NCBI GenBank assembly: GCA_964575235.1
Contig: CAZNQG010000002.1
Coordinates: 1-63,841 of the forward strand
Reading direction: 5' to 3'
Length of the DNA: 63,841 nt
Source of the DNA: an uncultured Bacteroides sp.
GTDB taxonomy: Bacteria; Bacteroidota; Bacteroidia; Bacteroidales; SM23-62
Position numbers and translations under genes: made by a program. The notes under the pieces are model-generated. The model saw nothing but the letters and a program-made list of their open reading frames with translations, was not told where the DNA came from and did no database searches. Shown piece after piece: positions 135 through 54,263 of this stretch; position 1 is the first letter of the stretch, and every line of letters begins with the position of its first letter.

Positions 135-1361
135 TTAACAGTATATTTCTTTAAGTTCATTAATCCTTTCCGATACAGGGACACTAAATCTGCATTTACT
201 TGTGCAGGTAATGCAATTGCTGCAGCTGTCAATACTTCTTCCTTGCTCAATTTGATCGAGGGTCATTTTAGCCATCAGAAGATTACCATATCCTAACCCA
301 TACATGTGTATTCTCATCAGGGTTGGAACATCAACGTTTTTTGCACAGGATGCAATACATGTTCCGCATTGCCGGCAAACCGACTGAATGGCAAGTTTAA
401 CGTTTTTATCACTGAGGAATTTCTTTTCTTCTTCAGTATATTCCAGATCATATGCCACTGTTATATCTTCCCTGATCTGGTCAAATGTGGTAAAACCCGG
501 AACAGCAGTTGCAATGTATTCGTTTTTGAGCACCCATTTAAGCAATGCGGTATTCATGTTGGTTTTACTATAAAACGTCTGCTGTTCAGCAGGAAGCCCT
601 CTCTTATACCATCCTTGTTGGCATTGGGTTTTCATTGCCACCAGTCCAATGCCTGCATTATGAGCACGCTCAATCGAATCAAATACACGTGGATCGTTGT
701 ACATTGAGAAATTGAATGAGAGGAGGATTACATCGTAGAACTCTCTCCGGGCAGCGTCATCTACCAGATCCGGCCAATAAGAATGCGTGGAGAAACCCGA
801 AAATCTTATTTTTCTTTTTTCTTTTAATTCAGTAAATGCTTCGAGGATGTACGGATCATTTATCTGATCCAGGCCTGCCGGCATGTGATAATAAAGTATA
901 TCGACAAAATCCATTTGCAGACGCGAAAGACTTTGATCGAACCTTGTAAGAAACATCTCCTTTGCCTCTTTGCCCCTGACAGGTCCCGGTAATAAGATCT
1001 TGGTGCCAATGCTGACATCCTCACGCTTCGCACCTACTTCACGGAGGACGGATCCAACCATTTTTTCGTTATTGCCATTCTGATAGTACCATGCGGTATC
1101 AAAGAACCTTATGCCTGCCTCCCAGGCAGCTCTGAGCAGTGCGGGATTGTCGGCATTCATCACCCCCATACTAACGATGGGCAGCTTGATTCCTGTTTTC
1201 CCAAGTGATCTGTATATCATCTTATCTCTGGCACCGGCCTGTTGGTCACCGGTATCATTTGTTTTTATCAGGTTCCTGGTAAGACTGTTCTGGGATAGAC
1301 CAAAAAATCCCGCCAAGGCCAGATTCTTAGTTGTATTTCCGAGAAATTTCCTTCTGTTCAT
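135..1361 (-). CDS. Tat-signal aldo/keto reductase fused to a C-terminal ferredoxin-like 4Fe-4S Cys-cluster domain
   Basis: 408-aa ORF. The N-terminus MNRRKFLGN..LALAGFF carries a twin-arginine RRxFL motif. The core is AKR-like (GIRFFDTAWYYQNGNNEKMVG). The C-terminus has CRQCGTCIASC and CSNCITCTSKC motifs. Confidence 0.8.
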   Translation of the reverse strand: MNRRKFLGNTTKNLALAGFFGLSQNSLTRNLIKTNDTGDQQAGARDKMIYRSLGKTGIKLPIVSMGVMNADNPALLRAAWEAGIRFFDTAWYYQNGNNEKMVGSVLREVGAKREDVSIGTKILLPGPVRGKEAKEMFLTRFDQSLSRLQMDFVDILYYHMPAGLDQINDPYILEAFTELKEKRKIRFSGFSTHSYWPDLVDDAARREFYDVILLSFNFSMYNDPRVFDSIERAHNAGIGLVAMKTQCQQGWYKRGLPAEQQTFYSKTNMNTALLKWVLKNEYIATAVPGFTTFDQIREDITVAYDLEYTEEEKKFLSDKNVKLAIQSVCRQCGTCIASCAKNVDVPTLMRIHMYGLGYGNLLMAKMTLDQIEQGRSIDSCSNCITCTSKCRFSVPVSERINELKEIYC

Positions 1362-1641: not shown

Positions 1642-2673
1642 ATGAACATTAAAATCCCTGTACCTGTTTCCGGCGGTTTGTTATTATCCTACAAGTGCAA
1701 TGCTGCATGCCGTCATTGCATGTATGCATGTGCCCCCGGGTGGAAGGCTGACTGGATTTCAGAAGGAGACCTGGAGAAAATATTAAACCAGCTGGCGGGT
1801 AAGATACAGCCAAGTCCCTACGGAAAAGAAAACATCGGTTTGAGCCATGGATTGCATTTCACCGGAGGCGAGCCCTTTTTGAACTTCGACCTGTTGTGCA
1901 AAGCCATAGAGATCGCAACAGGCCTGGATATCCCTTCCGTCTTTGTAGAAACCAATGGCTACTGGTGCAGCAACGATGAAACCACCAAAGAGAAATTATT
2001 GATTCTTCGTGAGAAAGGAATGAAGGGAATCATGATCTCGGTAAATCCGTTCTACCTGGAATACGTACCGTTCGAGAGGACGGAAAGGGCAATCAGGATG
2101 AGTACGGAGATATTCGGTTATAATGCAATAGTCTATCAGATTGAATACTTCAAGCGTTTTAAAGCATTGTGCATCAAAGGAAAAGTATCTTTTGAAGAAT
2201 TCCTGAAAATGGAAAACAGGGCTGATTTTGCCAGGAGGACTGAGTTTTTTATTATGGGAAGAGCTCCTTACAGTCTTTCAGAAGGACTGGCCGACCTGTA
2301 TCCCAGGTATCCTGCCAGGAGTCTTGTGCATTTGCCCTGCAACCCGCCTTTTCTGAGAAGCTGGCATAACCATTTTGATAATTACGGCAATTTCATGCCC
2401 GGATTCTGCGGTGGGATCAGCCTTGGAGATTGCAGGAAATTGGATGATCTGTTGAAATCCGGCGTCGATGCGGATGAATTCCCGGTTTTAAAACATTTGA
2501 TCCTCGGGGATATGGAGGGATTACTGGAATTTACGCTCGAACGGGGATATACTGCAAACGAAGAGGGGTATTATTCAAAATGCCATTTATGCGTCGATCT
2601 GAGGAAGTATCTTCATGCGAGGAATGGATTCAGGGAATTGACTCCGGATGAGTTTTATACCAAACTGGCCTGA
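1642..2673 (+). CDS. radical SAM domain protein, function unknown
   Basis: 343-aa ORF with CNAACRHC (CxxxCxxC) near the N-terminus. Additional C-terminal cysteines are present (CGGISLGDC, CHLC). Confidence 0.7.
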   Translation: MNIKIPVPVSGGLLLSYKCNAACRHCMYACAPGWKADWISEGDLEKILNQLAGKIQPSPYGKENIGLSHGLHFTGGEPFLNFDLLCKAIEIATGLDIPSVFVETNGYWCSNDETTKEKLLILREKGMKGIMISVNPFYLEYVPFERTERAIRMSTEIFGYNAIVYQIEYFKRFKALCIKGKVSFEEFLKMENRADFARRTEFFIMGRAPYSLSEGLADLYPRYPARSLVHLPCNPPFLRSWHNHFDNYGNFMPGFCGGISLGDCRKLDDLLKSGVDADEFPVLKHLILGDMEGLLEFTLERGYTANEEGYYSKCHLCVDLRKYLHARNGFRELTPDEFYTKLA

Positions 2674-3030: not shown

Positions 3031-6000
3031 TCATTCCAATACAAGCTGACTCAAACCGAATTTTTTCATATCCCTATCATATCCTTTTCCCCTTGCAAAT
3101 TCCCTTGCCTGGTGCATAAAAGCCTGAATCTTCATATCAATAGATGTATTATCCTGTCCGTCATAAGCAATATTGACATAAGGGATGTTGTCATGGTCTC
3201 TTTTAAACTGATCGGACACAGATTCGATAACCGTCCCCGGCATGCAGGTAAAAGGGAGGATATTTGCAATACCCGATATTCCGGTTTTGGACAAAGCAAC
3301 GGATGTACCCAGATTAAGTGCAGGATCACCATCATAATGTTTATGAATATACGGGCCACAGGATTCCAGCATTTCATGCAGCTCAATATCTCTTTCCCTG
3401 TCATACATTCCCAAAAGAGATTTTTGCAGCTTCTTTGATACTGATTTTTGGACAAAGTCCTGGATCCTGGCTTTCATCAATCCTTTATAATCACCTTTCC
3501 ATATACTGTCACGGTTGTATCTGTATGTAGTATAACTTAACCATTCACCAAAAGGTGCAATCCAGGTTTCAGCACCGTTTTTCTCGAGTCTGTCAATTAA
3601 AAAGCCATTGCAGAAGGGATTATCACGCATAAATATTTCACCGACTACTGCTATAACAGGTTTCCTTAATCCGTTTTTCAATGGAATTTCATGCATTCTG
3701 CGTGCAGTCTGTTTCAGTATGTCAATAACATCCTTACCACCCTGTTCGATGGATTCGACAATCATTGTAAGACCCTCATTGTATACATGCTCCGTTGAAC
3801 CGGGAGTTAATTCATAAGGTTTCCGCTCCTGTTTTAATTTTCGCAGCAGGTCAATTGCAACGATGCCTTTCCATGCAGCATAGCGGAATTTTGTACCCTG
3901 TCCGCCGGAAAGGGCTTCATAAGAAGTATCGTTACTGGGTGAAATGATTCTGACATCTTCAAATCCCAGCCTGTTGAACAGGACACTCTGAAACTTGTTG
4001 TATTGCCCGAAACGGCACGGACCATTATGGTCAGGCATAAAGAAACTTATCTTTTTCGAATCGGCCCCGGGTTCCATTAATCTTTTCAGGAAACTTCCGG
4101 TAGTGCATATCATGGGGAAACATTCCCTTCCCGATGTATATTTTCTGCCCAGGTCAAGGTCCTTTTCATCTTCTCTGGGAAGCACGCGAGCATCGATACC
4201 GCAATATCTCGATGCTGCCGCAACAGCCTCTCCGGCATCACACATATAGGGAAAATACAGAATGCGGTTTTTTTCGGGCGATGAAGCAAAGCCCCTGGGT
4301 TTATATACTTCATTTCGTACTTTATTGATCAGTTTTGACCCTCTCAGACTGTCAAGAAATGCTTCACACCTGGTGATTAAACCCGCATCGGCACTGTGTT
4401 CGTCAATTTCCAGCTCCAGGTACGGTTTGCCTGCCATTTCTTCAATGACGAAATGTGACAGGAACGAATCGGGGCCGCACCTGTAATTGCCCATATAAAC
4501 GGCATGAAGCTTATTATCTCTTCCAATGATTCTGGCAGCAGCAAGAATATCCTGCCCGTTGGGCCAGTACATTTGATGGTAGTCTTTGGTAATTCTTTCA
4601 CCTGATAGCGGCAGAAAATCTGTTGGTATCGGTATGACATCGAGATTGATCAATTTTTCAATCAGGTTCATATTCAGTGCAGGATCACCGGTATTATAAG
4701 GCCTGCCTATTATCACCACACTTTCTTTATCATCCGGAAGATTATCCAACACTTCTTTTCCCCGTAATTCAAGGTTTCGCTCAAACTGTGTTTGTAAACG
4801 GTCCGCCTTCATGATGGCATCGACGGTTTTCTTTTTGGGTATCTTGAATTTGTCCCACATGAAATCCGACAATTCCTTGTTCAGAACTTTACCAAAATAT
4901 CTGAAATTAAGGGCAGGCATCAGCAGTTTCTCCCTGTCTTCCGGAGGGAGTGCAGTTTTTACCATAAATGGATAGGTTTGTACGTAAGTACAATTATAAT
5001 TGTAGGTTGGATTATCTTTTTCACCCTTCTCATTAATAATGAAGGGTGTAAAGATATAATCAACCTGTTTCTCCAGCAGGTCATAAATATGTCCGTGCAT
5101 TACCTCCACAGGCAAACAAGTCTCGGCAACGATCATATCAAGCGACTTTTTAACGATCTTGTTGTCCGTCTCAGAAGACAGCACCACACGAAATCCCAGT
5201 TCTTCGAAAAATGTTCTCCAGAACGGGAATTGCTGGTAAAATAACATCAGCCCTCTCGGGATGCCTATGGAGATCCTTTCATCTTTCTCTTGTTCCCTGT
5301 AATCTCCCATCAACATTTTCAACCTCTCATCGAAATAATTCGGGATATCATGACCTTTGCTTTTACGTTCAGCCACTTCGAACAGTTCGCACCTTGCCCC
5401 ATAGAAAAGGGGCCTTTTCTCTCCTTCTATCCTTACCCTCCTTATCTCACAATAATTGGGGCATTTTTTGCAAATGAACTTATCGACTGTATAAGGAATT
5501 TTACTGATGTCCCAACCTTTAAAGCGGGTATGAATATTATTCTCTTTCACATACTCCCTTGCCAGCATTGCTGCACCAATAGCTCCCGTCACATCAAAGT
5601 GAGGCGGCACATATATTTTTTTACCGGTAACCTCTTCGAATGCTGCTACAACGGCCTTATTATTGGTAACCCCGCCCTGAAAGAGTATATGATTGCCGAT
5701 CCTTTTTTTCCTGACGACCATATGGATATAGTTCAGAACAATGGAATAGGCCAAACCTCCAACCAGATCTTCCGTTTTCGCTCCTTTTTGTTGATATGAA
5801 TTCAAGTCAGATTCCATAAAAACAGTACAACGGTCGCCCAGTGCAGCAGGTTTTTTTGACTGAAGAGCCAGGTTTCCGAATTCATCGATAATGCTGATGC
5901 CAAGTTTTTCTGCCTGTTCTTCCAGGAATGATCCGGTTCCCGCAGCGCATACCTTATTCATCTCAAAGTCAACAACCACGCCATTATCAATACTGATGTA

Positions 6001-7317
6001 TTTCGAATCCTGTCCACCAATCTCAAATATTGTGTCCACTTCCTTATCATAAGCAACTGCTGCGGTAGCCTGAGCCGTGATCTCATTGCGGATCACATCG
6101 GCTCCGATAAAATCACCGGTAAGGTAACGTCCCGAACCCGTTGATCCGGCAGCTTTAACAACAACCTTGCGCCCAACTTCCTTGAATATTTCCAGCATTC
6201 CACGCCTGATGGCATCCAGAGGTTTGCTGGCAGTAGGAAGATATCGCCTGGCAACAACCCGGTTATTATCATCAATCAATACCACATTTGTGCTTAATGA
6301 ACCAACATCCAGTCCAAGGTACACTTCTGTCTTCTCCGTCCCTTCAGGCAATATCCTGACATCTTTACGATATTTTGTATCCGGTTCAATGAGGGGTTCC
6401 AGATATTTTCCCTCTGTATCTCCGCTTTTAAGATATTTATCCAGTTCTTCCAAACCTTTAAAAACAGCCTTATTGCCGGCATTCGTGGATAAAGTATGAA
6501 AAACCGCTCCAATGGCGCCCATTGATGCATGATACTCAGGAATGACCAGGTCTTTCTCATCTGCATGAAGGATTTCCCTGAAAGCTCTCACCACACCAAC
6601 ATTGGCTGCAACACCACCCTGGAATATTACAGGAAATTCAAGCTTTTTCCCCTTGGCCATTGAACTGATAAAGTTCCTCGCTACTGCAAAACACAATCCG
6701 GCAACAATATCATGAACCGGTGTTGCTATTTGCTGCAAGTGGATCATGTCACTCTTTGCAAAAACGCTGCACCTGCCTGCCATCCTTGGTGGGTTTTCCG
6801 ATTTCAATGCAAGTTCACCAAATTCCTTTTCAATGGGAACGCCAATTCTTTTCGCCTGCTGGTCAAGGAATGAACCTGTTCCCGCAGCGCACAGGTTATT
6901 CAACTGAAAATCCAGGAGCTTGGAGGAATTATTTTCTGAAACATCCATAAAAATAAGCTTCGAATCTTCGCCACCCATCTCAATAATGGTTTTCGCCGAA
7001 GGATAAAGTTTTGATACAGAAGTAGATTGGGCAATAATCTCATTTACATAGTGTCCGCCGATTAATTCCGAAGCCAGTTTCCCGCCGGTACCTGTAATGG
7101 ATACCGATGCAATCTGATAATCCCTGTATGCTGTAAGCAGTTCTCCAAGAACATCCCTGAGCCTGTGAAAAGGTTTGCCATGACAATAATCATATCGATT
7201 TACAACGATCCTGTTCTCATCATCCATTAAAACAGTATTCAGGGATATAGATCCAACGTCAATCCCCAGATGTATCCTGATTCGTTCCCGGTTATTGTTA
7301 TCCCCTGCCTTAACCAT
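3031..7317 (-). CDS. BadF/BadG/BcrA/BcrD-type ATPase x2 fused to a Cys-rich dehydratase/DUF2229-like C-terminal half (CoA-substrate-specific enzyme activase-type giant protein)
   Basis: 1428-aa ORF with two repeated ATPase modules (GIDVGSISLN / GLDVGSLSTN). Each module has CAAGTGSFL(D/E)(Q/E)QA and a cluster-bridging Cys motif (GRCSVFAKSD / GDRCTVFMESD). The C-terminal 800 aa has many spaced Cys residues (CKKCPNYC, AETCLP, YRCGPDSF, GRECFPMICT, GPCRFGQ, FTCMPG). Confidence 0.85.
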   Translation of the reverse strand: MVKAGDNNNRERIRIHLGIDVGSISLNTVLMDDENRIVVNRYDYCHGKPFHRLRDVLGELLTAYRDYQIASVSITGTGGKLASELIGGHYVNEIIAQSTSVSKLYPSAKTIIEMGGEDSKLIFMDVSENNSSKLLDFQLNNLCAAGTGSFLDQQAKRIGVPIEKEFGELALKSENPPRMAGRCSVFAKSDMIHLQQIATPVHDIVAGLCFAVARNFISSMAKGKKLEFPVIFQGGVAANVGVVRAFREILHADEKDLVIPEYHASMGAIGAVFHTLSTNAGNKAVFKGLEELDKYLKSGDTEGKYLEPLIEPDTKYRKDVRILPEGTEKTEVYLGLDVGSLSTNVVLIDDNNRVVARRYLPTASKPLDAIRRGMLEIFKEVGRKVVVKAAGSTGSGRYLTGDFIGADVIRNEITAQATAAVAYDKEVDTIFEIGGQDSKYISIDNGVVVDFEMNKVCAAGTGSFLEEQAEKLGISIIDEFGNLALQSKKPAALGDRCTVFMESDLNSYQQKGAKTEDLVGGLAYSIVLNYIHMVVRKKRIGNHILFQGGVTNNKAVVAAFEEVTGKKIYVPPHFDVTGAIGAAMLAREYVKENNIHTRFKGWDISKIPYTVDKFICKKCPNYCEIRRVRIEGEKRPLFYGARCELFEVAERKSKGHDIPNYFDERLKMLMGDYREQEKDERISIGIPRGLMLFYQQFPFWRTFFEELGFRVVLSSETDNKIVKKSLDMIVAETCLPVEVMHGHIYDLLEKQVDYIFTPFIINEKGEKDNPTYNYNCTYVQTYPFMVKTALPPEDREKLLMPALNFRYFGKVLNKELSDFMWDKFKIPKKKTVDAIMKADRLQTQFERNLELRGKEVLDNLPDDKESVVIIGRPYNTGDPALNMNLIEKLINLDVIPIPTDFLPLSGERITKDYHQMYWPNGQDILAAARIIGRDNKLHAVYMGNYRCGPDSFLSHFVIEEMAGKPYLELEIDEHSADAGLITRCEAFLDSLRGSKLINKVRNEVYKPRGFASSPEKNRILYFPYMCDAGEAVAAASRYCGIDARVLPREDEKDLDLGRKYTSGRECFPMICTTGSFLKRLMEPGADSKKISFFMPDHNGPCRFGQYNKFQSVLFNRLGFEDVRIISPSNDTSYEALSGGQGTKFRYAAWKGIVAIDLLRKLKQERKPYELTPGSTEHVYNEGLTMIVESIEQGGKDVIDILKQTARRMHEIPLKNGLRKPVIAVVGEIFMRDNPFCNGFLIDRLEKNGAETWIAPFGEWLSYTTYRYNRDSIWKGDYKGLMKARIQDFVQKSVSKKLQKSLLGMYDRERDIELHEMLESCGPYIHKHYDGDPALNLGTSVALSKTGISGIANILPFTCMPGTVIESVSDQFKRDHDNIPYVNIAYDGQDNTSIDMKIQAFMHQAREFARGKGYDRDMKKFGLSQLVLE

Positions 7318-7386: not shown

Positions 7387-8748
7387 CTAATTTTTTTTCA
7401 GTACCTGATGGATGATTTCTTCTGCTGCCCTTATTATCGGATTACTTACCGGCGACGATGTCAGCAGCGGGTGTGTACCGATCTGAAAGGATACCAGTTC
7501 ATATACAGTAATGGACTTTTGAATGGCCATGCTGATAATATTTATGATCTCGCCAACCGATTTTCCGCCCCATGCTTCACCACCTATGATGCTTCCATCA
7601 ACGGTAGAAGCATAAAGTTTTACCGTCAGATCAGATGAACCGGACAAAGTTCCGGGATGCCTGTCAGGCGATGTAAATTCTGCAGATATGATTTCAATGC
7701 CGTCTTCTTCTGCATTTTTTTCATTGGCACCTGCAGCCGCCATGGCAAGTCCGTTTATTTCAGTCGAGAAAACTCCCAGGGTTCCTGCCGAGCATTTCTT
7801 AATTCTGATTCCGAAAATGTTATGACCAAGTATACGGGCCTCAGCAGTGGCGGATGAAGCCAGTTTGATGATATCGCTCCGGCCTGTCAGAAAACCGAAT
7901 GTCTGGGCACAGTCGCCTACCGCACTGATATCTTTAATTGAGGTACGTCCGTATTCATCTACATGGATATCCCCGTATTTATTTAATTCAAGTCCTGCCT
8001 CTTTTGCCAGTTGGGTATTGGCTTTGTAGCCGATTGAAAGGATCACCGCATCGGCAGCGATCTTTCTCCTGTCGGCAAGGACGACCTGTTTGACTTTATT
8101 ATTTTCACCGGCAATTTCCTTAACCAGCGAAGAAGTCAAAACGTTAACCTTTGTATTTTTTAATGCGTCGGTCGCTATCCTGCTCAGTTCAGTTGAAAAT
8201 GCTTTTGAAAAACAGTTTGGTTCACTTTCAACCAGAGTAACGTTAATATCTGATGCGGCTATTTGTTCGGCTGCTTCGGCTCCTATAAACCCCCCTCCTA
8301 TAATGACAATATTCCTGAACCCGCTTATTTTTGACGCCAATTCTTTGATATACGGGTAGTCTTTTTTCATATAAAATACATTCTGAAGGTCATGGCCCGG
8401 GATAAAATCAGGAATCTTCGGAAGAGACCCGGTTGCAAAGACAAGTTTGTGGTATCCAAACTGTTCACCGGTTTTCACAGCAACTGTTTTACTTGCTTTA
8501 TCAACAGCTTCTGCCTTATTTATCAATACTTCTCCGCCCAGATCAACAAATGGTTTGGGACCCATTTTATTTTTATCAGCATCGTTGCCCAGCAGGTGAA
8601 AAATATAAGGAATCCCGCAAGGAACAAGTCCCTCGCCGGCTTCTTTAATCATAAGCACCGATTTTTCGTTAAAAAACTTTTTAATGGTTATTCCTGTTAC
8701 GATGGCAGCAGGACCTCCTCCGATGATGATTACATCATAAGTTATCAT
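7387..8748 (-). CDS. FAD-dependent pyridine nucleotide-disulfide oxidoreductase (NADH oxidase / CoA-disulfide reductase-like)
   Basis: 453-aa ORF. FAD fold VIIIGGGPAAIVTG, single redox Cys in LVPCGIPYIF, NAD(P) fold IVIIGGGFIGAEAAE. Confidence 0.85.
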   Translation of the reverse strand: MITYDVIIIGGGPAAIVTGITIKKFFNEKSVLMIKEAGEGLVPCGIPYIFHLLGNDADKNKMGPKPFVDLGGEVLINKAEAVDKASKTVAVKTGEQFGYHKLVFATGSLPKIPDFIPGHDLQNVFYMKKDYPYIKELASKISGFRNIVIIGGGFIGAEAAEQIAASDINVTLVESEPNCFSKAFSTELSRIATDALKNTKVNVLTSSLVKEIAGENNKVKQVVLADRRKIAADAVILSIGYKANTQLAKEAGLELNKYGDIHVDEYGRTSIKDISAVGDCAQTFGFLTGRSDIIKLASSATAEARILGHNIFGIRIKKCSAGTLGVFSTEINGLAMAAAGANEKNAEEDGIEIISAEFTSPDRHPGTLSGSSDLTVKLYASTVDGSIIGGEAWGGKSVGEIINIISMAIQKSITVYELVSFQIGTHPLLTSSPVSNPIIRAAEEIIHQVLKKN

Positions 8749-8770: not shown

Positions 8771-8926
8771 TCATTTTATTTCAAACATGTTTCCGCTATT
8801 ATCCCATATGAAATACGTATTGCTGCCGGGATTGCTTTTCACAATAACCTTATAACCCAGCTTTAACGCGTTATTATAGACAGCTTCTGCATTGTTTACC
8901 GTTAATGCAATATGTCTCAGTATAAC
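8771..8926 (-). pseudogene. single-module VOC/glyoxalase-like relic without a canonical start codon
   Basis: My own translation gives VILRHIALTVNNAEAVYNNALKLGYKVIVKSNPGSNTYFIWDNSGNMFEIK*. This looks like one beta-alpha-beta-beta-beta VOC module. The frame is closed by TAA directly upstream and contains no ATG/GTG/TTG. Confidence 0.3.
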
Positions 8927-8950: not shown

Positions 8951-8966
8951 ATGAACATTTGTTCAT
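8951..8966. promoter_or_regulatory. palindromic operator candidate, site 1 (ATGAACATTTGTTCAT)
   Basis: Perfect 6+6 inverted repeat with a 4-nt spacer, in non-coding DNA upstream of the minus-strand flavoprotein/activase unit. Confidence 0.5.
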
Positions 8967-9139
8967 TATAAAATTATTTAGATTAATTTTGAATAAAAAA
9001 TTATAATTGCGGATAATAATCCCGGAATTTATAACTCTTCCGAATACGCCTTGTCATATCCGATTGAATACAATGGTGAAAAACGCTTCCCGATACCAGC
9101 CAGAGCATCAGAACAATGCCATGCGATCTGAATAACCTG

Positions 9140-9778
9140 TTATATTTCAATGCTCCTGCCGGCTCCGCCTTCAACATACCTGTCGGGGTACAGGTTTTGA
9201 ATTTCAGTGATGTGCTGAGTACAATGAGTGGGACAGATCATACCGAAATCCTTAAACAGATAAAACTCATTGAATCCGTGCAAACCGCCGATGATGGCAT
9301 AGATCTCTCCAAATTGTGAGGCCGCATCAAGGATATGTTTCATTTCCGGATGTGAACACCCTGCAATAAGGACCAGTCCTTTATCCGTGCTGACCGCCAT
9401 GGATTGTTCAATATTATCAAGTTCTCCGGTTGAGAAAACATTTTCATGGATCTTTATGGCCTGATCCACATGGATGACCTTTCTTGCATTGCACACGCCC
9501 CTCAGCGAAACCGGCACATAGATGGTGACGTTATTGTTCTTATTAAGAAAGGATGAAAGTCCCCCCACGTGGTCAAAATGATCATGAGAAATAAATACTT
9601 CATCAATTCCCGTCGGATCGATATCCAATTTTTTCATATTATTCAGGAGGATGGATCCGTTGGCTCCGGTATCAAAAAGGATATTGTGATCCCCGGTCTC
9701 AACCAGGGCGGAAAATCCCCAGTCAGATTTCAGTCCCGGCTGAAATAGGGTGTTGTCATAAATGATTGTAATTTTCAT
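9140..9778 (-). CDS. short MBL-fold metallo-hydrolase (COG1237-like type)
   Basis: 212-aa ORF starting MKITIIYDN. It has a GFSALVE..ILFDTG block, the HxHxDH motif as SHDHFDHVGG, and a C-terminal PTHCT. It overlaps the upstream ATPase gene by 4 bp. Confidence 0.8.
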   Translation of the reverse strand: MKITIIYDNTLFQPGLKSDWGFSALVETGDHNILFDTGANGSILLNNMKKLDIDPTGIDEVFISHDHFDHVGGLSSFLNKNNNVTIYVPVSLRGVCNARKVIHVDQAIKIHENVFSTGELDNIEQSMAVSTDKGLVLIAGCSHPEMKHILDAASQFGEIYAIIGGLHGFNEFYLFKDFGMICPTHCTQHITEIQNLYPDRYVEGGAGRSIEI

Positions 9779-10527
9779 ATTTGCTTTATTTCCGGTATTC
9801 TTCTCTTTCTGCTTGCTTCGGCTATCTCACTTATTTCTTCAAGCATTTCTTTTGATATCGGAACCTCTGTTTCCTTGTCTGAGAATTTAACCTCTTTCAT
9901 TTTTGAGATCCTAAAAAACAACCTCATTGGACTTTCAATCCGTGTAAACATTAAATTATCAGCGGCTTCTTCCATCAACCGGATTTTATCTGCAAATGCA
10001 CTGGTGCTTACGGCAAAAGCATAGGTCTTACTTTTATCATCCCTGATGGCTTCCAGTAATTTATTCAATATCCTTTCTTTATAAGTAGGGGAAAAAAGCA
10101 GTAAATTCAGCGCTGAACCAAAAACCATGGTCCCCGGATCGGTATTTTCAACCATCTCTTCTGCCATTTCAATTGCATCATCCCATATTTCCGGCTTTAC
10201 CATATTTGCCAGAAGCATATTATCACTTATCTTCCTGCATATCTCAGCATGGGGATCAAACTGAATATATGCTATTTTCCCTTGATAATCCTGGAGATCA
10301 ATTTGATAAAGCTTTTGGATAGCACTTTGTATTAACTCTGCTGATGGATATTGCAGGGGTATGCTTATCAATGAACCCCCGGCTTTTAGCCATGCAGAAA
10401 CAAAGGCAAGTTCTACCAGTGGTTTCCCGGTTCCGCCGGGTCCGCTTATTAAAGTGGAAGACGGAATTGCAATACCTTCCGGCAGCAGTGCATCCAACCA
10501 TTCAATGTTACTTTTTAACTTCTTCAT
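9775..10527 (-). CDS. KaiC/RecA-superfamily P-loop domain protein with an atypical Walker A
   Basis: 250-aa ORF. IEWLDALLPEGIAIPSSTLISGPGGTGKP resembles KaiC/RadA-like N-termini, but Lys is followed by Pro rather than Ser/Thr. Confidence 0.55.
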   Translation of the reverse strand: MKKLKSNIEWLDALLPEGIAIPSSTLISGPGGTGKPLVELAFVSAWLKAGGSLISIPLQYPSAELIQSAIQKLYQIDLQDYQGKIAYIQFDPHAEICRKISDNMLLANMVKPEIWDDAIEMAEEMVENTDPGTMVFGSALNLLLFSPTYKERILNKLLEAIRDDKSKTYAFAVSTSAFADKIRLMEEAADNLMFTRIESPMRLFFRISKMKEVKFSDKETEVPISKEMLEEISEIAEASRKRRIPEIKQI

Positions 10528-10608
10528 GATTTATTTATTCTTAAACTCTGTCCCAGCTTCCTCGATGGAACCGGTCCAAATGCCAGAGTTGTTAGTTGTT
10601 CATACATC

Positions 10609-11643
10609 TTACAAGCCAATACCAGCAATGTACATTCCGCATTCCGGACACCGATGATCCTGAATCCTGTTTCTTATTTTTCCGAAACCGGATCGCTCAA
10701 TTAATGCTTTACCGCATTGGGGACAAATGGTATGTGAATCCTTGTGGTCCCATATATTACCCGGATATACATAATAAAGCCCGGCTTCCAAACCTGTTTC
10801 CTTTGCCAATTGCAAGGTTTTCAAAGGTGTGGATGGGTATTCTTTCATTCTATTAGCCGGGAAGAACCGGCTGATGTGCCAGGGAATATCCCTGCCCAAT
10901 TCGGTTGCAACAAAATCAGCCATATCCCGGATTTCATCCGGATCATCATTGATGCCGGGTATGATCAAACTGGTAACCTCCAACCATATATTTAACTGTT
11001 TTACTTTCTTCAGGCTGTCCAGAACTGGTTGTAAATGTGCCCCGGTATACCTGCGGTACGTTTCGTCTCGGAAAGCCTTTAAGTCAATGTTGACTGCATC
11101 CAGATAAGGACTGATCATCTCCAGCATTTCACCGGTCATATAACCATTGGTAATATAAAGATTATTAAGCCCGGCTTCATGTGCATGGCGTGCCGTATCA
11201 TAGCTGTATTCAAAAAAAATCGTAGGTTCCGTATAGGAATAAGCAATATGCTCAGAACCTTTCTGTTTTGCATCCAGAACGATTTGTTCCGGTGTTGCCT
11301 CCTTTCCGGATTCCAGTATTTCTTCGCTGAAGATTTCAGCAATATGCCAGTTCTGGCAAAATCTGCAATGAAAGTTACACCCGGGTGTGGCAATGGTATA
11401 CGCGCTGGAACCGGGATAAAAATGATACAATGGCTTTTTTTCTATCGGATCAATGTTTTGGGCAACGGTCCGTCCGTAGGCTTTTGTAACGAGCGTTCCC
11501 GCATCATTTTGCCTTACCTTGCAGATCCCTTTCCTGCCAGGAAATATCACACAACGGTGGGCACAAAGATTACATATGACTTTGCGCTCCTCTATTTTTT
11601 CATATAACAGTCCTTCTCTCACATGAAAGCATTTTATCAGCAA
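10609..11643 (-). CDS. amrS: AmmeMemoRadiSam system-type radical SAM enzyme
   Basis: N-terminal CNLCAHRCVIFPGRKGICKVR, DPIEKKPLYHFYPGS, radical SAM CNFHCRFCQNW, and a C-terminal zinc ribbon CPQCG..CPECG. The ORF-track start is TTG. An in-frame GTG at 11622 gives MREGLLYEK, which looks like the usual N-terminus. Confidence 0.8.
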   Translation of the reverse strand: MLIKCFHVREGLLYEKIEERKVICNLCAHRCVIFPGRKGICKVRQNDAGTLVTKAYGRTVAQNIDPIEKKPLYHFYPGSSAYTIATPGCNFHCRFCQNWHIAEIFSEEILESGKEATPEQIVLDAKQKGSEHIAYSYTEPTIFFEYSYDTARHAHEAGLNNLYITNGYMTGEMLEMISPYLDAVNIDLKAFRDETYRRYTGAHLQPVLDSLKKVKQLNIWLEVTSLIIPGINDDPDEIRDMADFVATELGRDIPWHISRFFPANRMKEYPSTPLKTLQLAKETGLEAGLYYVYPGNIWDHKDSHTICPQCGKALIERSGFGKIRNRIQDHRCPECGMYIAGIGL

Positions 11644-11649
11644 TCAATG

Positions 11650-11886
11650 TCAGTTCTGTGTTTCAGACGGAACGTTGCCAAAAAGTCTTGTCCCAATCCG
11701 TACGATATTGGCTCCTTCTTCGATGGCTATCTTGAAACTGTTACTCATCCCCATAGAAAGATAGCGCATCTCAACATTAGGTATTCCGGCATTTACTGCG
11801 GCCCGGACATCTTCAGGCAGTCTGTTTTTTGCCGCAGCAACCAGTAATATACCAGGCGGCAGAGAGCTTTTGATTTCATGATAAGA
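11650..11886 (-). pseudogene. C-terminal relic of a YggS-family PLP-binding protein
   Basis: The ORF tail ..[57 protein letters not shown] matches the conserved YggS C-terminus (LSMGMS..AI..G...VRIG..IFG). The N-terminal two-thirds or so of a normal YggS is absent. Confidence 0.5.
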
Positions 11887-11915
11887 CATACATAAAATTA
11901 GCAAAACAAGTCGAA

Positions 11916-11931
11916 ATGAACCAATGTTCAT
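11916..11931. promoter_or_regulatory. palindromic operator candidate, site 2 (ATGAACCAATGTTCAT)
   Basis: The arms extend to AAATGAAC/GTTCATTT. The site lies in the divergent region between the amrS unit (minus) and the DUF134 gene (plus). Confidence 0.5.
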
Positions 11932-11940
11932 TTGATTTAT

Positions 11941-11948
11941 TATCTTTG
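11941..11948 (+). promoter_or_regulatory. Bacteroidota-type -7 promoter box TATCTTTG (TAnnTTTG) for the DUF134 gene
   Basis: Exact match to TAnnTTTG, 9 nt downstream of palindrome site 2 and about 100 nt upstream of the ATG at 12050. Confidence 0.35.
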
Positions 11949-12049
11949 TTTGGAAAGCATTGCAGCGTCGATAAAAGGAATGTGATAAAAAATATCTGGC
12001 CGGAGATAAGGAATTGTAATGATGATCACGGGAATTAACTGAATCAGTC

Positions 12050-12460
12050 ATGCCAAACAGGAAAAGGCAAAGAAGAATTATGATGCCTCCAGTAATGGAA
12101 GGATTCAAACCATTTGGTGTTCCCGAGCGGAAGATCGAGCATGTGACTTTATTGTATGAAGAATTCGAAGCGATAAGGCTTTGTGATTATGAAATGCTGA
12201 CTCAGGAAGAAGCCTCTTACAGAATGCATGTTTCAAGGCCCACCTTTAACCGCATATACAATCATGCAAGAATGACCATTGCAAAAGCATTCGTTGAAAA
12301 CAGGGAGATTTTAATAAAAGGGGGAACCTATATATCGGATGACTATTGGTTTAAGTGCGATAATTGCCATGAGATTATGATTACCTTAAAACCAATACTC
12401 CTTTGCAGAAAATGCAATTCTGAGAATATATACCAGTTGAATATGAAGCCGGAAAGATAA
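12050..12460 (+). CDS. DUF134 (UPF0251) family DNA-binding protein with a C-terminal zinc-ribbon extension
   Basis: 136-aa [21 protein letters not shown] and [37 protein letters not shown] form a sigma-70 region-4-like HTH typical of DUF134. The C-terminus has CDNC-16 aa-CRKC. Confidence 0.75.
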
Positions 12461-12480
12461 GACAACCGATGAGTATTGAC

Positions 12481-13110
12481 TCAGTCAGGGTCTTTTTCAA
12501 CGAGCCAATGAACAAATTTTTCAGGAAATCCCACAATCACTTCATCTTTTAAAACGTTTCCGTATTTTCTTGATTCCGGACAGCCAAAAGACACGCAGGA
12601 AATATCTGAATTATAACCCCGGACAAAGACATTTCCACAGATTGAAAGTAATGAATTGTGCTGGATAAACGCAGATTTTCCCGTTTTGCTTAAAAGCTCA
12701 TGGATAAACTCCATTACTTTGGAAGGATGTGCATATATAATGTAAAAATCAGGTTTGTATTCCTGCTCCATTTCACTGGTGATGCCCATGTAGATGTTTT
12801 CAAGGGAGACCGCTATAGTGGGCGTATCCTTTAACATTTTGCGGATATGATTCCGCGGTATACTTGTATATTCCGAAATGTGCAGTGATAATTCATTATC
12901 CATATTTTTCTGGAATCCCAAACTGCGTTTAGCACCCATGCAATCAAGGTTTTCTTTATTGATGAGCAAGGGTATATCAAAGGAATAATGGATTGCTTCA
13001 CAAAACCTGATCTTTTTGGATGGTATGTTGATAATCCCATCCGGGGTACTATTGATAAGTAAACCTGTACACTTGCGTGTATCAAAGTATTCTTTGACTT
13101 TGTCAAGCAT
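12481..13110 (-). CDS. DUF169-like protein
   Basis: 209-aa ORF. The pattern RFCEAI, NLDCMGAKRSLGF, KPDFYIIYAHPSKVMEF, SICGN..SFGCPESRKYGNVLKDEVIVGFP resembles DUF169 as I remember it. Confidence 0.5.
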   Translation of the reverse strand: MLDKVKEYFDTRKCTGLLINSTPDGIINIPSKKIRFCEAIHYSFDIPLLINKENLDCMGAKRSLGFQKNMDNELSLHISEYTSIPRNHIRKMLKDTPTIAVSLENIYMGITSEMEQEYKPDFYIIYAHPSKVMEFIHELLSKTGKSAFIQHNSLLSICGNVFVRGYNSDISCVSFGCPESRKYGNVLKDEVIVGFPEKFVHWLVEKDPD

Positions 13111-13170
13111 GTTACCAGAAAATGTTAATCAATGCATCAAAACATGAATCATTACCGGTAATATAATTAA

Positions 13171-13186
13171 ATGAACTTTTGTTCAT
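13171..13186. promoter_or_regulatory. palindromic operator candidate, site 3 (ATGAACTTTTGTTCAT)
   Basis: The arms extend to AAATGAAC/GTTCATTT. The site lies in the divergent region between DUF169 (minus) and the TsaA-like gene (plus). Confidence 0.5.
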
Positions 13187-13282
13187 TTTAAAATAATTTG
13201 GATTAAATTTAAATAATTTATTCCATTGATACAAAGACCAGGCACATGAGTAATAAAATAAATAACACATTCGATAATAAAC

Positions 13283-13843
13283 ATGTATTGCAGAATTAGT
13301 TATTTTCTTATAATCAACGCATTAATTGTTTTCAGTATGAACGGACAGGATACGACTCAACCAATAATATATCATCCAATTGGAATTTTTCATACCTCCT
13401 ATACCCCCCAAACCGGTGCGCCCCGCCAGGGCATACTAATGCCTGAAACAAAAGGCCGGATTGAAATTTATCCGCCGTATCACAGTGCCTTACAAACCCT
13501 GGAGTTATTTGAATACATTATTGTACTTTATCATTTCAACAAAGTAAAGCGATGGGATGATGTCGTAACCCCACCTGCTTCAGGACACGATTTTGGTTTA
13601 TTTTCCACGCGCAGTCCAAAGAGGCCAAATCCGATCGGATTCTCTATTGTAAAACTTGAAAAAATAGAAAAGGGGATTCTATACGTATCGGGGGTTGATG
13701 CTTTCAACGGGACTCCTGTATTGGACATAAAGCCCTATTTACCTTCAATAGACTGTATTAAAAGCGTTCAAAATGAATTGATCGAAGAAGAACTCGGGCA
13801 TCATGATGAGGATTTTATATACGATTCAACCTATTTCAAGTAA
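13283..13843 (+). CDS. tsaA: TsaA/TrmO (YaeB, UPF0066) family SAM-dependent methyltransferase-like protein
   Basis: IGIFHTSYTPQTGAPRQG, FSTRSPKRPNPIGFSIVKL and GTPVLDIKPYLP are family hallmarks. The first 18 codons are hydrophobic and atypical, so the ATG at 13337 (MNGQD..) is a likely true start. Confidence 0.8.
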   Translation: MYCRISYFLIINALIVFSMNGQDTTQPIIYHPIGIFHTSYTPQTGAPRQGILMPETKGRIEIYPPYHSALQTLELFEYIIVLYHFNKVKRWDDVVTPPASGHDFGLFSTRSPKRPNPIGFSIVKLEKIEKGILYVSGVDAFNGTPVLDIKPYLPSIDCIKSVQNELIEEELGHHDEDFIYDSTYFK

Positions 13844-13976: not shown

Positions 13977-14391
13977 TTAATGTTGCAGGTTCAAATAGGC
14001 ATTATTCTTCTTTAGAGAATAACGAATGAGACCTGCTTCCTGATTATTAAGATTCTTCACAATCTCTTGTATTTTAAAGTATATCAGATAATTAGGAAGG
14101 TATTTTGAAGAAACTCCATTAAATTGTCTGATCCATTTCATTAATTTACTATGAACATTATTCACATGCTGTAAATGAAAAATCTTCTTCGTTGTCCACT
14201 TTCTGTCCCAACTCGGTATTTTCTTGTGCAATAGATTCTTCTTCCTGGCAAACGCATCATATACAGTATACTGATCTGTGCATAGAACTGTTATTATTCT
14301 GGGATTTCTCCTCTTAACTACCCGCATACCCAGCGCCTCTGTAATATCTTTGCTATTTGCTTTACCCTTGCCGGTTGCCTTTAGTGCAATT
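13977..14391 (-). mobile_element. 5'-truncated IS1595-family transposase relic
   Basis: ..CTDQYTVYDAF..HLQHVNNVHSKLMKWIRQFNGVSSKYLPNYLIYF resembles the C-terminal part of ISXO2-like DDE transposases. The frame is open only from 14402 and runs straight into the stop codon of the neighbouring esterase gene. No N-terminal zinc-ribbon/DDE part is present. Confidence 0.6.
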
Positions 14392-42027: not shown

Positions 42028-45000
42028 CTACCGGTCGTCCTGGTGGTCGACTTTGGCGTATTCGCTTGGGGAACTCTTGAATTTCTGTTTGAAACTCTTG
42101 GCGAAATATGCGGGATCGTCGTAACCAACCATAAAAGAGACTTCGGAGATGCTCAGTTCATTCTGGCTCAGAATGGTTGCCGCTCTCTTAAGTCGTATCT
42201 CCTTAATGAAATTATTGGTCGATTCACCCGTTATGGCCTTTAGCTTCCGGTAAAGTGTTGACTGACTCATGGCCATATCATGGCTGAATGAGATCACATC
42301 AAACTCAGGGTTGGCTATGTTTTTCTCTACAACTTCAATCGCCCTGCTCAGGAATTTCTCATCCGTTGAGGTGATCACGATGTCGGCCGGTTTGTAGACC
42401 AGTTCCTTCCTGAACCTTTCCTTCATCCTGTCACGGGATTGGATCAGGTTGTTGATCTGGGTCTCAAGCAACTTTAAATTAAACGGTTTGGTGATATATG
42501 CATCGGCGCCGGTTTCCAATCCCTTTTGCCGGCTTTCGTCGCCCGACTTTGCGGTCAGCATTACAACAGGGATATGGCTGATCTCCAGTGTGTGTTTTAT
42601 TCTGGAGCAAAATTCGTACCCGTCCATCTCAGGCATCAGTATATCCGTTATGATCATATCCGGATTGTATTTCATGGCCAGGTCCAGGGCTTCCATCCCG
42701 TTTTCAGCTTCGATGAATTCGTAACTGTTTTTCAGGCTGGACATGATGTATGACCGTATGTCCTCGCTGTCTTCGACGACCAGAACAAGAGGTTTGTCCG
42801 ATTCCCTGGTTACTTCCGTTTTCTTTTTGCGGGTGGCTATATTCATGGACCGGATGATGTTTATCCTTGTCTTTTCGGCATAGGAATAAAGAGCATCCGG
42901 ATCATCATCCCTTTCCTTTTCGTCCTCCTTCAAATATTCTTCCCCGAAGGGTATGAACAGGACGAATTCGCTTCCCTGTCCCAGGACAGAACTGACCTCA
43001 ATCTTCCCATGGTGAATCTCTGCAAGTGATCTCGCCATGCTAAGCCCTATGCCGCTGCCGGCCTGATCAAGGCTGACAAAGCTCCCGCTGTGATAGAACC
43101 GGTCGAAGATGTATGGTAGGATCTCTTCCTCAATGCCTATTCCCGTATCCGTTACGGATACCCGAACCGATTTCACATTCCCCAGTCCGGGCAGTTCCGA
43201 CAGGGCTGTTCCAATTGCAACGGTTACCCCTCCTTCCTCCTCTGTATATTTAAACGCATTCGATAAAAGATTCGAGAGGATCTTCTCGATCTTGTCACGA
43301 TCGAACCAGGTGATTATCGATTTCACCTCCGGCTGGAACTGCAATTCAATTTGCATCTTATCAGCCAGGCTGGTAAAACAGGATACGATATCGCCAACGA
43401 ATCTCACTATATTGCCCTCCGAAGATTTCAAAAGGGTGTTCTGGATTTCAAGCTTCCTGAAATCCATGATCTGGTCAACCAGCGTCAGCAGACGGCTTGC
43501 ATTTTTGTAAATCACATCAAGCTTGTATTTCCGGTCCTTATCGTTAAGATCCTTTTCCTGGTCTATGAGTTCTTCTGCGGGTCCGAGGATAAGGGTGAGC
43601 GGTGTCCGGATCTCATGGGAGATATTGGTAAAGAACTTGAGCTTCTCCTGATTGCTCCGCAGGATTTCCTTGGACATGGCCGACAGGTTGTTGCGTTGTT
43701 GCACCAATTTTTCATTCTGAGCCTTCAACTTTTGCGCCTGGCGGTCGATTTTTTCTTTCTGGTTCATTACCGCCGATGTTCTTTCTTCAACCAGTTGTTC
43801 GAGGTGAACATTGTGCTTTTTAAGCCTGTATCCGTATATCCTGATTCCAAGGTACAGGATAAGGATAAAAGCCACGACATACAAGATTTTCATCAGGAGG
43901 GTGCGATACAGGGGAGGTTTAACGATGAACTGGTAATATCCCTCTTCGCTGATTTCACCCGAGTAATTCCTGGCCCTTACCCTGAAGGTATAGGTGCCTT
44001 CAAAGAGGTTCTGGTAATCTTTATGGGTTGATGTAGTCCAGGCAGACCATTCCTTATCGTAGCCTTCCAGCATATAACTGTATTCGGGTTGAATATCATC
44101 CTGGTAATAGGGGCATGAGAACTCGAATGATATGGTGTTCTTTCTGTGTTCGAACTCGGGTATCCATCCGGCCGGCTGTTCAACGGCCGTGGTCTTCTTC
44201 CCGATTTCACCGGAATAACCGGTGCCGTAATACAGAACCGAATCATTATGAAAAGAAACCTTCCGTATCAATGTGGCGAATTCTTCGGTCCTGATCGGCC
44301 GGACCTTCTTCGTGTCGTACCTGAGGAGCCCGTTCTCGCCGGCGATCCATGTCGCGCCCTTCCCGTCATGAAAATAGAATGTCGTCGCACCGCTGAGCGT
44401 TAACATCTTGTAGGGCAGGCGTATAATTTGGAACTGACCGTCGGGCTGCCTGTCGAATATCTCCGTGTTCAGTCCCCACACATTCCCGTACGGATCTTCC
44501 TCGAGGTCATCCACTGTTTTATTCCACTTCAGTCCCGCTTCACCGAAGATATCCGAGCGGATGAACCGCCCGTTTTCCTTGTCGAATTCAAAAAACCCTT
44601 CGCATGAAACGATGAGGCGGCCTTTATAAATATGAGTGGTTGTCTTGTTGGTATTGGGAAGGCCGTGCTGGCTGGTAAAATTCTCGATTGAGATGGCATC
44701 GAAGGCCGGTGATCCAAGGTGTCCGGACAGCCTGTTCCGTTCATCCCTGAATACCTTGTCAAATCCAACCCTGAACACGCCAAAATACATGGTTCCCAGC
44801 CATACGTTACCATCCGCATCCTCGGCAATTGAATGAACATACGATGATATATCCTTTTCCCAGAGAACCTGCCATCCGTTGTCTCTTTTTTGAAGGACAT
44901 AGAAGGTCGGGTGCGTGCTGAAATACAGGATGGACGGGTTGAGCCTGGACTGGCAAAGCCGAAGAATGCCGACCCGGTCGGTCAGGAATTCAATCCTTTG

Positions 45001-53616: not shown

Positions 53617-54263
53617 AGCTGAATAACCTTAAATAATGTAAATATCCTTTTTTCGAGATTTTTATTTTCAAATTTTGTCAAGTATTCATACAGCTTTGGT
53701 TTTTCCAGTTCATCATGCAGCACGCCCGTATTAAATCGCAATTCCAGAACATCATCTTCCGTATCGTATTGCGTATTTATATAGAAAAAGTCAAGAACGG
53801 CTTTTTCCATTTCTGCAATTTTCACCTGATGAGAAAATCGATTTGATATTTGAATGGTGCCTGGATTGGAATTGATAGAAATCAGTTTATATCCGAAGTA
53901 CAGCTTTGGTTTTACAGCGTTGTAATAGAAGCTCCCGTACACTGTGCTGTATTGTGCCGTCTTATTTGTTGTTATTGAAGTGGAAGAAAATACACCTTCC
54001 GGTATTACCTGATACCATGATAAAGCAGTTTCCAGGCTCACATAGGAGGGAGAATGAATTTTATTTGCGATCAACCATAGAAACTTGTTATTATTCAGAT
54101 ATTCAGGAAAGCAATACCATTTATTTCTGATTTTCACGATCAGTTTTTTGTCCTGCCATTCTGAAAGTCTTCTCCTGTCAAATCTCGGGAATTGTTTTTT
54201 GATGTCATTGGTTGAAAAGACCCCCAGATTATACAAGCTGGTCTTAAACTCTGAAAACCTCAT
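53613..54263 (-). CDS. AbiEi-family antitoxin / transcriptional regulator
   Basis: 216 aa. Winged-helix-like N-terminus (FSTNDIKKQFPRFDRRRLSEWQDKKLIVKIRNKWYCF). Position and 4-bp overlap are typical of AbiEi-AbiEii pairs. Confidence 0.7.
   Translation of the reverse strand: MRFSEFKTSLYNLGVFSTNDIKKQFPRFDRRRLSEWQDKKLIVKIRNKWYCFPEYLNNNKFLWLIANKIHSPSYVSLETALSWYQVIPEGVFSSTSITTNKTAQYSTVYGSFYYNAVKPKLYFGYKLISINSNPGTIQISNRFSHQVKIAEMEKAVLDFFYINTQYDTEDDVLELRFNTGVLHDELEKPKLYEYLTKFENKNLEKRIFTLFKVIQL

Follow-up and report, generated by a model that had tools for sequence, protein, structure and literature searches.

We analysed a 63.8-kb stretch of DNA (the window; contig CAZNQG010000002.1 of an uncultured Bacteroides sp.), in which three copies of the palindrome ATGAAC-N4-GTTCAT surround a gene of the DUF134/UPF0251 family (12050–12460, plus strand; Pfam PF02001), the candidate regulator of the locus. 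The exact pattern ATGAACNNNNGTTCAT matched the window three times, at 8951–8966 (site 1), 11916–11931 (site 2) and 13171–13186 (site 3). All three copies lie outside genes and span less than 4.3 kb around the DUF134 gene, as a first-pass annotation made by a model from the letters of the sequence had noted, and 100 dinucleotide-preserving shuffles of the window contained no match. When up to two mismatches were allowed, five extra matches were obtained, all of them in coding DNA (e.g., at 25286 inside a SusC-like gene), and the total of eight was in the chance range (3.35 expected). The first-pass annotation had proposed a scan with a position weight matrix (PWM) and a comparison of orthologs. 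A PWM built from 94 orthologous sites scored the three copies at 34.3, 26.0 and 34.1 bits, with the runner-up in the window at 9.5 bits, and the motif proved to be kept upstream of orthologs. The PWM scan and the two-mismatch search found no credible degenerate site elsewhere in the window, including the region between the divergent aldo-keto reductase and radical-SAM genes (1361–1642). The arms of sites 2 and 3 reach AAATGAAC/GTTCATTT, in agreement with the first-pass annotation, and those of site 1 are AAATGAAC/GTTCATTA; the flank symmetry is AAATGAAC/GTTCATT(T) overall.

Predicted operators and the genes beside them

Site 2 (ATGAACCAATGTTCAT) is located upstream of the DUF134 gene. It ends 9 nt ahead of a perfect TATCTTTG −7 box of the DUF134 promoter (11941–11948, plus strand), just as had been claimed; this box starts 24 nt past the T of TGAAC (+24 class), and the centre of the predicted operator is at about −30. 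Site 2 is probably where DUF134 regulates its own gene, and it may in addition control the divergent minus-strand unit (9140–11889), which is composed of a YggS relic adjoining the site (11653–11889), the AmrS radical-SAM gene (10609–11643), a KaiC-like ATPase gene (9775–10527) and a metallo-β-lactamase (MBL) gene (9140–9778). Control of this unit is possible, without support from conservation; on the AmrS side only imperfect −7-like boxes were seen by eye, and the gene clusters of the unit are of size 1–2. The YggS relic is without roughly residues 59–194, an internal deletion of about 135 codons; the near-identical contig L161 has the gene intact (240 aa), which indicated that the deletion is strain-specific. 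Operators 2 and 3 are both kept in L161, the former at the same place upstream of DUF134 and the latter in identical form; however, L161 is about 97% identical in the DUF169–TrmO intergenic region and is therefore too close for footprinting. In L162, whose DUF134 protein is 74% identical, a one-mismatch version of operator 2 is present at the same place.

Site 3 (ATGAACTTTTGTTCAT) is located in the divergent promoter region between a DUF169 gene (12481–13110, minus strand; Pfam) and a TrmO/TsaA-like gene (13283–13843, plus strand; above the cut-off in Pfam/NCBIfam). Both genes are candidate targets of the predicted operator 3, with a site at 2/5 of the DUF169 orthologs and an exact site at 4/12 of the TrmO-like ones. 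The TrmO-like gene is served by a −7-like box, TAAATTTA (13204–13211, plus strand), which is one mismatch away from TAnnTTTG and located at +32 from the operator.

Site 1 (ATGAACATTTGTTCAT) lies in an ancestral divergent promoter between a VOC relic/Nox operon on the minus strand and an MBL relic on the plus strand. Of the VOC/glyoxalase gene (8774–8923), only residues 72–121 of about 125, the C-terminal third, are left. This relic was 46–56% identical to proteins of the VOC cluster by tblastn (E 1e-12 to 1e-15), and the intact VOC orthologs match Pfam Glyoxalase. The first intact gene 3′ of operator 1 on the minus strand encodes a Nox/CoA-disulfide-reductase (CoADR)-like flavoprotein (7387–8748; Pfam, NCBIfam), and 3′ of it, on the same strand, is the gene for a 1428-aa BcrAD/DUF2229 activase (3031–7317). 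On the plus strand, about 43 N-terminal codons of a 259-aa-type MBL gene are left (~9000–9128), with a stop codon at the end; the local alignment of this relic was frame-specific (score 83 versus 25–30 in the other two frames). The −7 box TAATTTTG (8984–8991, plus strand; 32 nt past the T of TGAAC) now serves the MBL relic only. Counterparts of site 1 were found in five related loci (L002, L009, L015, L033 and L054), where it separates VOC from MBL or Nox from MBL. The first-pass annotation had placed site 1 at the head of a VOC relic/Nox/activase unit. The Nox part of this claim stood, as the family is conserved, whereas both genes adjoining the site are relics and the activase, with no counterpart in 80 related loci (L001–L080, see below), is not a conserved regulon member; it is possibly an operon member with Nox. 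With two relics, the YggS deletion and an IS1595 transposase fragment (13977–14327, minus strand), the locus is decaying.

Between 1 and 14 kb, DUF134 is the sole gene with a Pfam DNA-binding domain. A tblastn search with Crp/Fnr and ArsR proteins from the related loci gave no match anywhere in the window, and a Pfam scan of the candidate open reading frames (ORFs) between 49 and 64 kb found no other regulator. The claim that DUF134 is the only DNA-binding protein encoded in the cluster was borne out by the Pfam and tblastn searches.

Conservation of the palindrome and content of the predicted regulon

The 80 related loci were found by DUF134 homology (57–69% protein identity), with one genome per species; they came from Bacteroidales, Rikenellaceae-labelled and Prolixibacteraceae genomes and amounted to 844 kb. 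TGAAC-N4-GTTCA occurred 95 times in this set, compared with an average of 0.9 for half-sites of the same composition, and ranked first among all 1024 five-mer/N4 palindromes. Enrichment was observed at the N4 spacing only; other spacings gave 0–2 matches. When the loci and the window were taken together, 92 of 98 sites (94%) were intergenic according to ORF calls made here. Site density dropped with distance from DUF134: 30 sites were within 0.5 kb, 80/94 within 3 kb, and few past 4 kb. The consensus was TAAATGAAC-ATAT-GTTCATTTA, and the arm sequence itself was constant across the 95 sites, beyond mere pairing. The palindromes are real, conserved and promoter-locked sites clustered around DUF134.

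A second DUF134 paralog (MARPxK...NVSRPTFTRIYNRALK, with CxxC pairs of its own) adjoins a small membrane protein in L001 (639), L006 (2113–2780) and L062 (773–1430). The sites near this paralog have a GC-rich spacer, TGAACCTGCGTTCA.

We clustered the neighbour proteins, named the clusters with Pfam, and counted a gene as having a site if one with at most one mismatch was found within 400 bp upstream. A site was present at 45/82 genes for DUF134 itself and at 34/37 for DUF5320, 19/33 for the 259-aa MBL-fold protein, 12/27 for Nox/CoADR, 7/10 for Nitro_FeMo-Co (NifX-like), 4/4 for VOC, 7/10 for DUF4405, 6/7 for a thioesterase, 5/10 for Dps, 5/7 for C_GCAxxG_C_C, 4/12 for ARMT1, 4/12 for TrmO-like and 2/5 for DUF169. 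MinD-ferredoxin and Mrp/NUBPL ATPases come next in the same operons, and control families from outside the regulon in the same loci were almost without sites. These counts suggest DUF5320, DUF134, NifX-like, MBL, Nox/CoADR, VOC, Dps, ARMT1, TrmO-like and DUF169 as the conserved targets. AmrS, the KaiC-like ATPase, the activase, the aldo-keto reductase with an Fe–S domain (135–1361, minus strand) and the second radical-SAM gene (1642–2673, plus strand) had 0 or 1 counterpart in the 80 loci, indicating that the conserved regulon differs from the radical-SAM cluster of the window. The earlier idea of a compact regulon thus held for a conserved local target set and not for the radical-SAM and activase genes.

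The DUF134 protein and its predicted half-site

The DUF134 protein of the window (136 aa) matched PF02001 over residues 5–96 (80.4 bits, cut-off 27; E 1.6e-22) and NCBIfam PRK04217 with 70.6 bits, under the equivalog cut-off of 115. Its layout comprises an N-terminal basic arm, a helix-turn-helix (HTH) of the sigma-70-region-4/DeoR type and a C-terminal Cys4 zinc-ribbon-like domain. It is without the NagB-like effector domain of about 250 aa that is typical of SorC/DeoR proteins, the Cys4 beta module taking up its C-terminus, and a Pfam scan found no further domain in it beyond DUF134 and Sigma70_r4. The protein has the helix S-[RQ]-x-T-x-x-R (as VSRPTFNR) and the EEYEA-RL-D motif. Ser62, Thr65 and Arg68 are invariant even in distant DUF134 members, and the alignment of orthologs showed Cys103, Cys106, Cys119 and Cys122 (CxxC...CxxC) as well as Arg63 and Arg68 to be invariant. 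An AlphaFold (AF2) model with a pLDDT of 74 contained a three-helix HTH and a small beta zinc-ribbon-like domain, and Foldseek matched the HTH part to sigma region 4 domains and to the DeoR DNA-binding domain.

Among proteins of solved structure, Bacillus subtilis DeoR comes closest to the HTH in sequence, through its DNA-binding domain (7bhy; profile E 7e-4). The helices read ISRPTVSRLL in DeoR and ISRPTFTRLY in DUF134, and Foldseek superposed 39 residues with an rmsd of 0.8 Å and 28% identity. The DeoR operator, ATTGAACAAAATTTCAAT, contains TGAAC-type half-sites with TGAA-N6-TTCA spacing (PMC11229326); in the complex, R39 of DeoR is in contact with the G of TGAA, and a hydrogen bond joins R34 to T12, the innermost base pair of the half-site (PMC11229326 and supplement). 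In our alignment, R39 corresponds to the invariant R68 of DUF134 and R34 to R63, a position held by Arg in some members of the family and by Gln in others. DeoR (PDB 7BHY, 8R7Y) therefore resembles the proposed system in its dimer on a palindrome of TGAAC half-sites, TGAA-N6-TTCA spacing, conserved R34/R39, promoter overlap and repression. It differs in its length (313 aa), in its effector domain for sugar phosphates and in working as a tetramer, on a composite operator of 39 bp, whereas DUF134 proteins have 96–160 aa, an N-terminal basic arm, a Cys4 module or no effector domain, and a different regulon. The archaeal Tfx/EnfR (TON_1525, PDB 8HNP; PMC10570040) is also a small sigma-70-region-4-like HTH protein with an N-terminal loop, which represses as a dimer over the promoter; in contrast to DUF134, it belongs to another Pfam family, has another C-terminal domain and binds a 36-bp AT-rich pseudo-palindrome without a TGAA core. 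We rejected EnfR/Tfx as the family of DUF134, because the likeness does not go beyond structure (Foldseek E 0.38) and the two belong to different Pfam families.

The HTH family was represented by 3134 proteins at 50% identity. A second set of 80 metagenome loci (L081–L160) was retrieved via an alignment of distant DUF134 members. The top palindrome found de novo in this set was TGAAT-N4-ATTCA, with 44 occurrences in 25 loci (0.55 in controls) and at N4 only; these sites precede DUF5320 and also the start codon of DUF134, the latter at a distance of about 20 nt. TGAAT was present in 19/20 loci with the helix SQPTF(H/F/Q)R, none of which has TGAAC or TGAGC, and also in 3–4/80 SRPTFTR loci, where it is without AT-rich flanks. 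Bacteroidales SRPTF(T/N)R proteins go with TGAAC (54/81 loci), and DUF134 clades with an SRPT..R helix have TGAAC or TGAGC half-sites. Two Arg-type proteins were found in a Gln-type (archaeal-like) backbone, and both have C at position 5 of the half-site (L110, ATGAACATATGTTCAT; L165, protein P0326, ATGAGCATATGTTCAT). Taken together, these sequences suggest a rule: the fifth pair of the half-site is C:G where the SRPT position is occupied by Arg, and T:A where it is occupied by Gln. Arg–guanine and Gln–adenine are classic pairings, and the switch residue is the one that reads the same base pair in DeoR. Members of the Gln-type clade named by sources are DPANN (mostly, with SQPTFHR) and Asgard archaea and one Phycisphaerae metagenome-assembled genome; as the clade includes archaea, the operator architecture appears to span both domains.

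Two further arrangements were observed. In archaeal-type loci, DUF5320 is preceded by two TGAAT sites in tandem at a distance of 23–24 bp, and a third one stands about 20 nt ahead of DUF134 (L087 4011/4034, L089 4642/4666, L091 2116/2140, L107 4038/4062, L114, L133, L137), an arrangement suggestive of DeoR-like cooperative or tetrameric binding. A third variant, TTATGAGCATATGCT(C/T)ATAAT, was found 33–53 nt upstream of the start codon in 15/28 cases of SR(Q/P)TFGR or SRPTFQR proteins, the helix reading SR(Q/P)TFGRII or SRPTFQR(I/V)L (L082 547, L105 1216, L116 4961, L118 463, L125 65 and others).

Proposed mode of regulation and alternative binders

We propose that the three palindromes are operators of the DUF134 (UPF0251) protein encoded at 12050–12460. 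A DUF134 dimer would set its two HTH units in successive major grooves of ATGAAC-N4-GTTCAT (TGAA-N6-TTCA); the invariant Arg68 would read the G of TGAA, and Arg63 of the SRPT motif would read the G:C pair at half-site position 5. As the operator stands just upstream of the −7 box, the bound protein would block RNA polymerase and repress its own gene along with a small local regulon. In the window, this regulon would consist of DUF134, DUF169, the TrmO-like gene, the Nox/CoADR(-activase) unit and perhaps the AmrS unit; in relatives, DUF5320, the NifX-like/MinD-ferredoxin operons, MBL, VOC, Dps and ARMT1 would be added. Some signal would lift the repression, and it may be sensed by the C-terminal Cys4 module, a candidate in Bacteroidales. 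On the sequence evidence, we put the probability that DUF134 is the protein binding the palindromes at about 0.75; what we infer is that the protein physically binds, that it does so as a dimer, that the effect is repression and that a signal relieves it. An autoregulated DUF134 factor had been the candidate regulator of the first-pass annotation, and both the upstream sites of 45/82 DUF134 genes and the covariation of half-site and recognition helix argue for it. The core of that annotation, i.e. promoter operators, a compact regulon and an autoregulated DUF134, was supported by every computational test available.

The sign of regulation was read from promoter geometry alone. In Bacteroidetes promoters, the −7 box occupies roughly −12 to −5. 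Counted from the T of TGAAC, the TAnnTTTG box started at +24 in 44 cases, at +16 in 18 and at +32 in 18. These three classes recur before non-orthologous genes, and a single palindrome often serves two divergent promoters, one with its box at +16 and the opposite one at +32. The −7 box follows the operator after 2, 10 or 18 bp, which puts the operator centre at about −22, −30 or −38. Because the centre is always within the core promoter, and on three helical faces, steric repression fits better than activation, and DUF134, if it binds, probably represses. We consider it unlikely that DUF134 binds but activates, replacing a missing −33 element, or acts as a dual regulator. Such a role would agree with its HTH of the sigma-region-4 type and with the +24 class, in which the left half-site sits exactly at the −33 TTG position and no TTG is present; however, with spacing classes that differ by 8 bp, the protein would have to meet RNA polymerase from three helical faces, and the +16 class abuts the −7 box while archaeal sites are about 20 nt before the start codon, which is typical of occlusion. 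The spacing from site to box is rigid, which would suit an activator, but much of this rigidity may be inherited, since most of the +24 cases are orthologous DUF5320 promoters.

The +32 promoters have in common a spacer of about 35 bp, GTTCATTTAAAAATTATTTAGAyTAAATTTGAATAAAA, which occurs in the window at 8952–9000 and 13172–13220 and in related loci at L001 10920, L011 1040, L032 7424, L043 3201, L054 4959 and others. It precedes non-orthologous genes (MBL, Dps, ARMT1, TrmO) and may be a second conserved element, e.g. a −33 or UP-like element or another binding site.

Several observations weigh against DUF134 as an autoregulated repressor of these promoters. A site with at most one mismatch was absent from the 400 bp upstream of 37/82 DUF134 genes. 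The loci were collected through DUF134 homology, and the co-localisation of sites and gene is therefore partly circular. The clades are not independent of one another, the covariation resting on about three clades and two within-clade switches, and the DeoR match spans 37 residues only. About a dozen DUF134 promoters have their nearest −7 box 52–66 nt away from the site, a non-occluding position that is class-I-like and would suit an activator; the −7 boxes beside site 1 (minus side) and site 3 are imperfect. Finally, many archaeal DUF134 proteins are without the Cys4 domain, which therefore cannot be a universal sensor. The known ArsR- and TetR-type operators described next count on the same side.

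The sites could instead be bound by an ArsR/SmtB metal or persulfide sensor encoded elsewhere, with DUF134 as just one target among others. The 12-2-12 operators of SmtB/ArsR proteins have the core TGAACA-NN-TGTTCA, e.g. AATACCTGAACA-GA-TGTTCAAGTATT (PMC8790569), with the same core and spacing as the sites here, and they too lie over the promoters of autoregulated repressors with small local regulons; their outer arms are AATA..TATT, compared with TAAA/TTTA flanks here. In six related loci, TGAAC-N4-GTTCA is present 18 nt upstream of an ArsR gene (Pfam HTH_5), and a regulon for metal or sulfur stress could well include targets such as MBL, CoADR-like proteins and Dps. We nevertheless regard this explanation as quite unlikely. 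The ArsR gene was found in 6/80 loci only and not in the 64-kb window; SmtB/ArsR proteins carry a winged HTH (HTH_5, PF01022), to which DUF134 has no match; and the half-site variant tracks the DUF134 helix across bacteria and archaea, which an unlinked ArsR does not explain. The sites linked to ArsR are a subclass of their own (TATATGAACAAyTGTTCAATCG), lacking the TAAA/TTTA flanks, and this subclass is probably the 12-2-12-type operator of the ArsR protein itself. Its sites are divergent from a C_GCAxxG_C_C gene (L023 2587, L043 9064, L045 8991, L056 3719, L069 7036, L072 9070). Exact sites were present in 54 loci, and 43 of these have no Crp/Fnr or ArsR gene nearby.

Another unlinked regulator of the Crp/Fnr, SorC/DeoR, TetR or Rex type is a very improbable binder. 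Crp/Fnr genes are present in 13/80 related loci, and FNR boxes (TTGAT-N4-ATCAA) resemble the sites in being 14-bp, 5-N4-5 palindromes in the promoters of anaerobic redox genes; however, Crp genes are commoner in loci without an exact site (8/26) than in those with one (5/54), and no site is found upstream of them. The half-site also differs, Crp/Fnr proteins need a cNMP-binding-like sensor and an HTH_Crp_2 domain, neither of which was found in the window, and FNR-type activators bind at −41.5, as against −22, −30 and −38 for the sites here. Half-sites of the form TTGAAC are bound by DeoR itself, and in Corynebacterium the same palindrome, TGAAC-N4-GTTCA, is recognised by the TetR protein AtsR (PMC9210681); no TetR-type gene was seen here, although no search was aimed at TetR. 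Covariation with the DUF134 helix argues against all unlinked regulators. A Rex-type box was rejected, as its spacing is TGAA-N4-TTCA, whereas only TGAAC-N4-GTTCA (TGAA-N6-TTCA) was enriched. Extremely improbable, in our view, is an origin of the palindromes as hairpins in RNA or DNA, acting as attenuators or weak bidirectional terminators, or as a duplicated promoter cassette without a dedicated regulator. The 7–8 bp stems are followed by T residues (dG −7 to −9.6 kcal/mol, z about −3) but are AT-rich with two G–C pairs only, and a terminator scan made no call; being upstream of −7 boxes, the sites are probably in untranscribed DNA. Sites 1 and 3 share about 50 bp of similar flank, as a cassette would, but the arm sequence is invariant over 95 sites and the motif precedes non-orthologous genes in many species. 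None of these rivals, other binder or hairpin, explains the covariation of the half-site with the DUF134 helix.

The proposed mechanism is a standard one, with a dimeric HTH repressor, a palindromic operator and autoregulation; what would be new is an operator and a regulon for the DUF134 family. In the searchable literature, we came upon no experimentally assigned function, operator or regulon for DUF134/UPF0251 and no description of the motif, which agrees with the first-pass description of the regulon as undescribed. The predicted operator and regulon would thus be the first for an uncharacterised family that is widespread in bacteria and archaea, with more than 3000 clusters at 50% identity and with Bacteroidota, DPANN and Asgard archaea among the groups named by sources. 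On balance, we favour a wider view of DUF134/UPF0251 as a family of small, bacterial and archaeal autoregulated repressors with one operator architecture (ATGAnn-N4-nnTCAT), an Arg/Gln–C/T code, DUF5320, NifX-like/MinD-ferredoxin and redox-stress targets, and a Cys4 module acquired in Bacteroidales, where it is possibly a metal or redox sensor. The prediction offers testable products: a 16–22 bp operator, the R63 recognition rule, a promoter geometry that predicts repression and a conserved target set. This set would tie DUF5320, NifX-like Nitro_FeMo-Co proteins, MinD-ferredoxin ATPases, DUF169, ARMT1 and C_GCAxxG_C_C to one regulatory signal and open an orphan gene module widespread in anaerobes to experiment, and the sites could be annotated throughout Bacteroidales and archaeal genomes.

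The window shows hallmarks of a Bacteroidota genome, among them a T9SS sorting tail, SusC/D genes and −7 boxes of the form TAnnTTTG. A polysaccharide-utilisation region 3′ of the regulon (16703–41539) contains GH127, a sulfatase and several SusC/SusD pairs, is without sites, and appears unrelated to the palindromes; a 1414-aa ORF (42028–46272) was listed with it. Further along, an AbiEii-type nucleotidyltransferase toxin gene of a type IV toxin–antitoxin or abortive infection system (52444–53616, minus strand) was found, with a 216-aa unannotated ORF (53613–54263) directly upstream.

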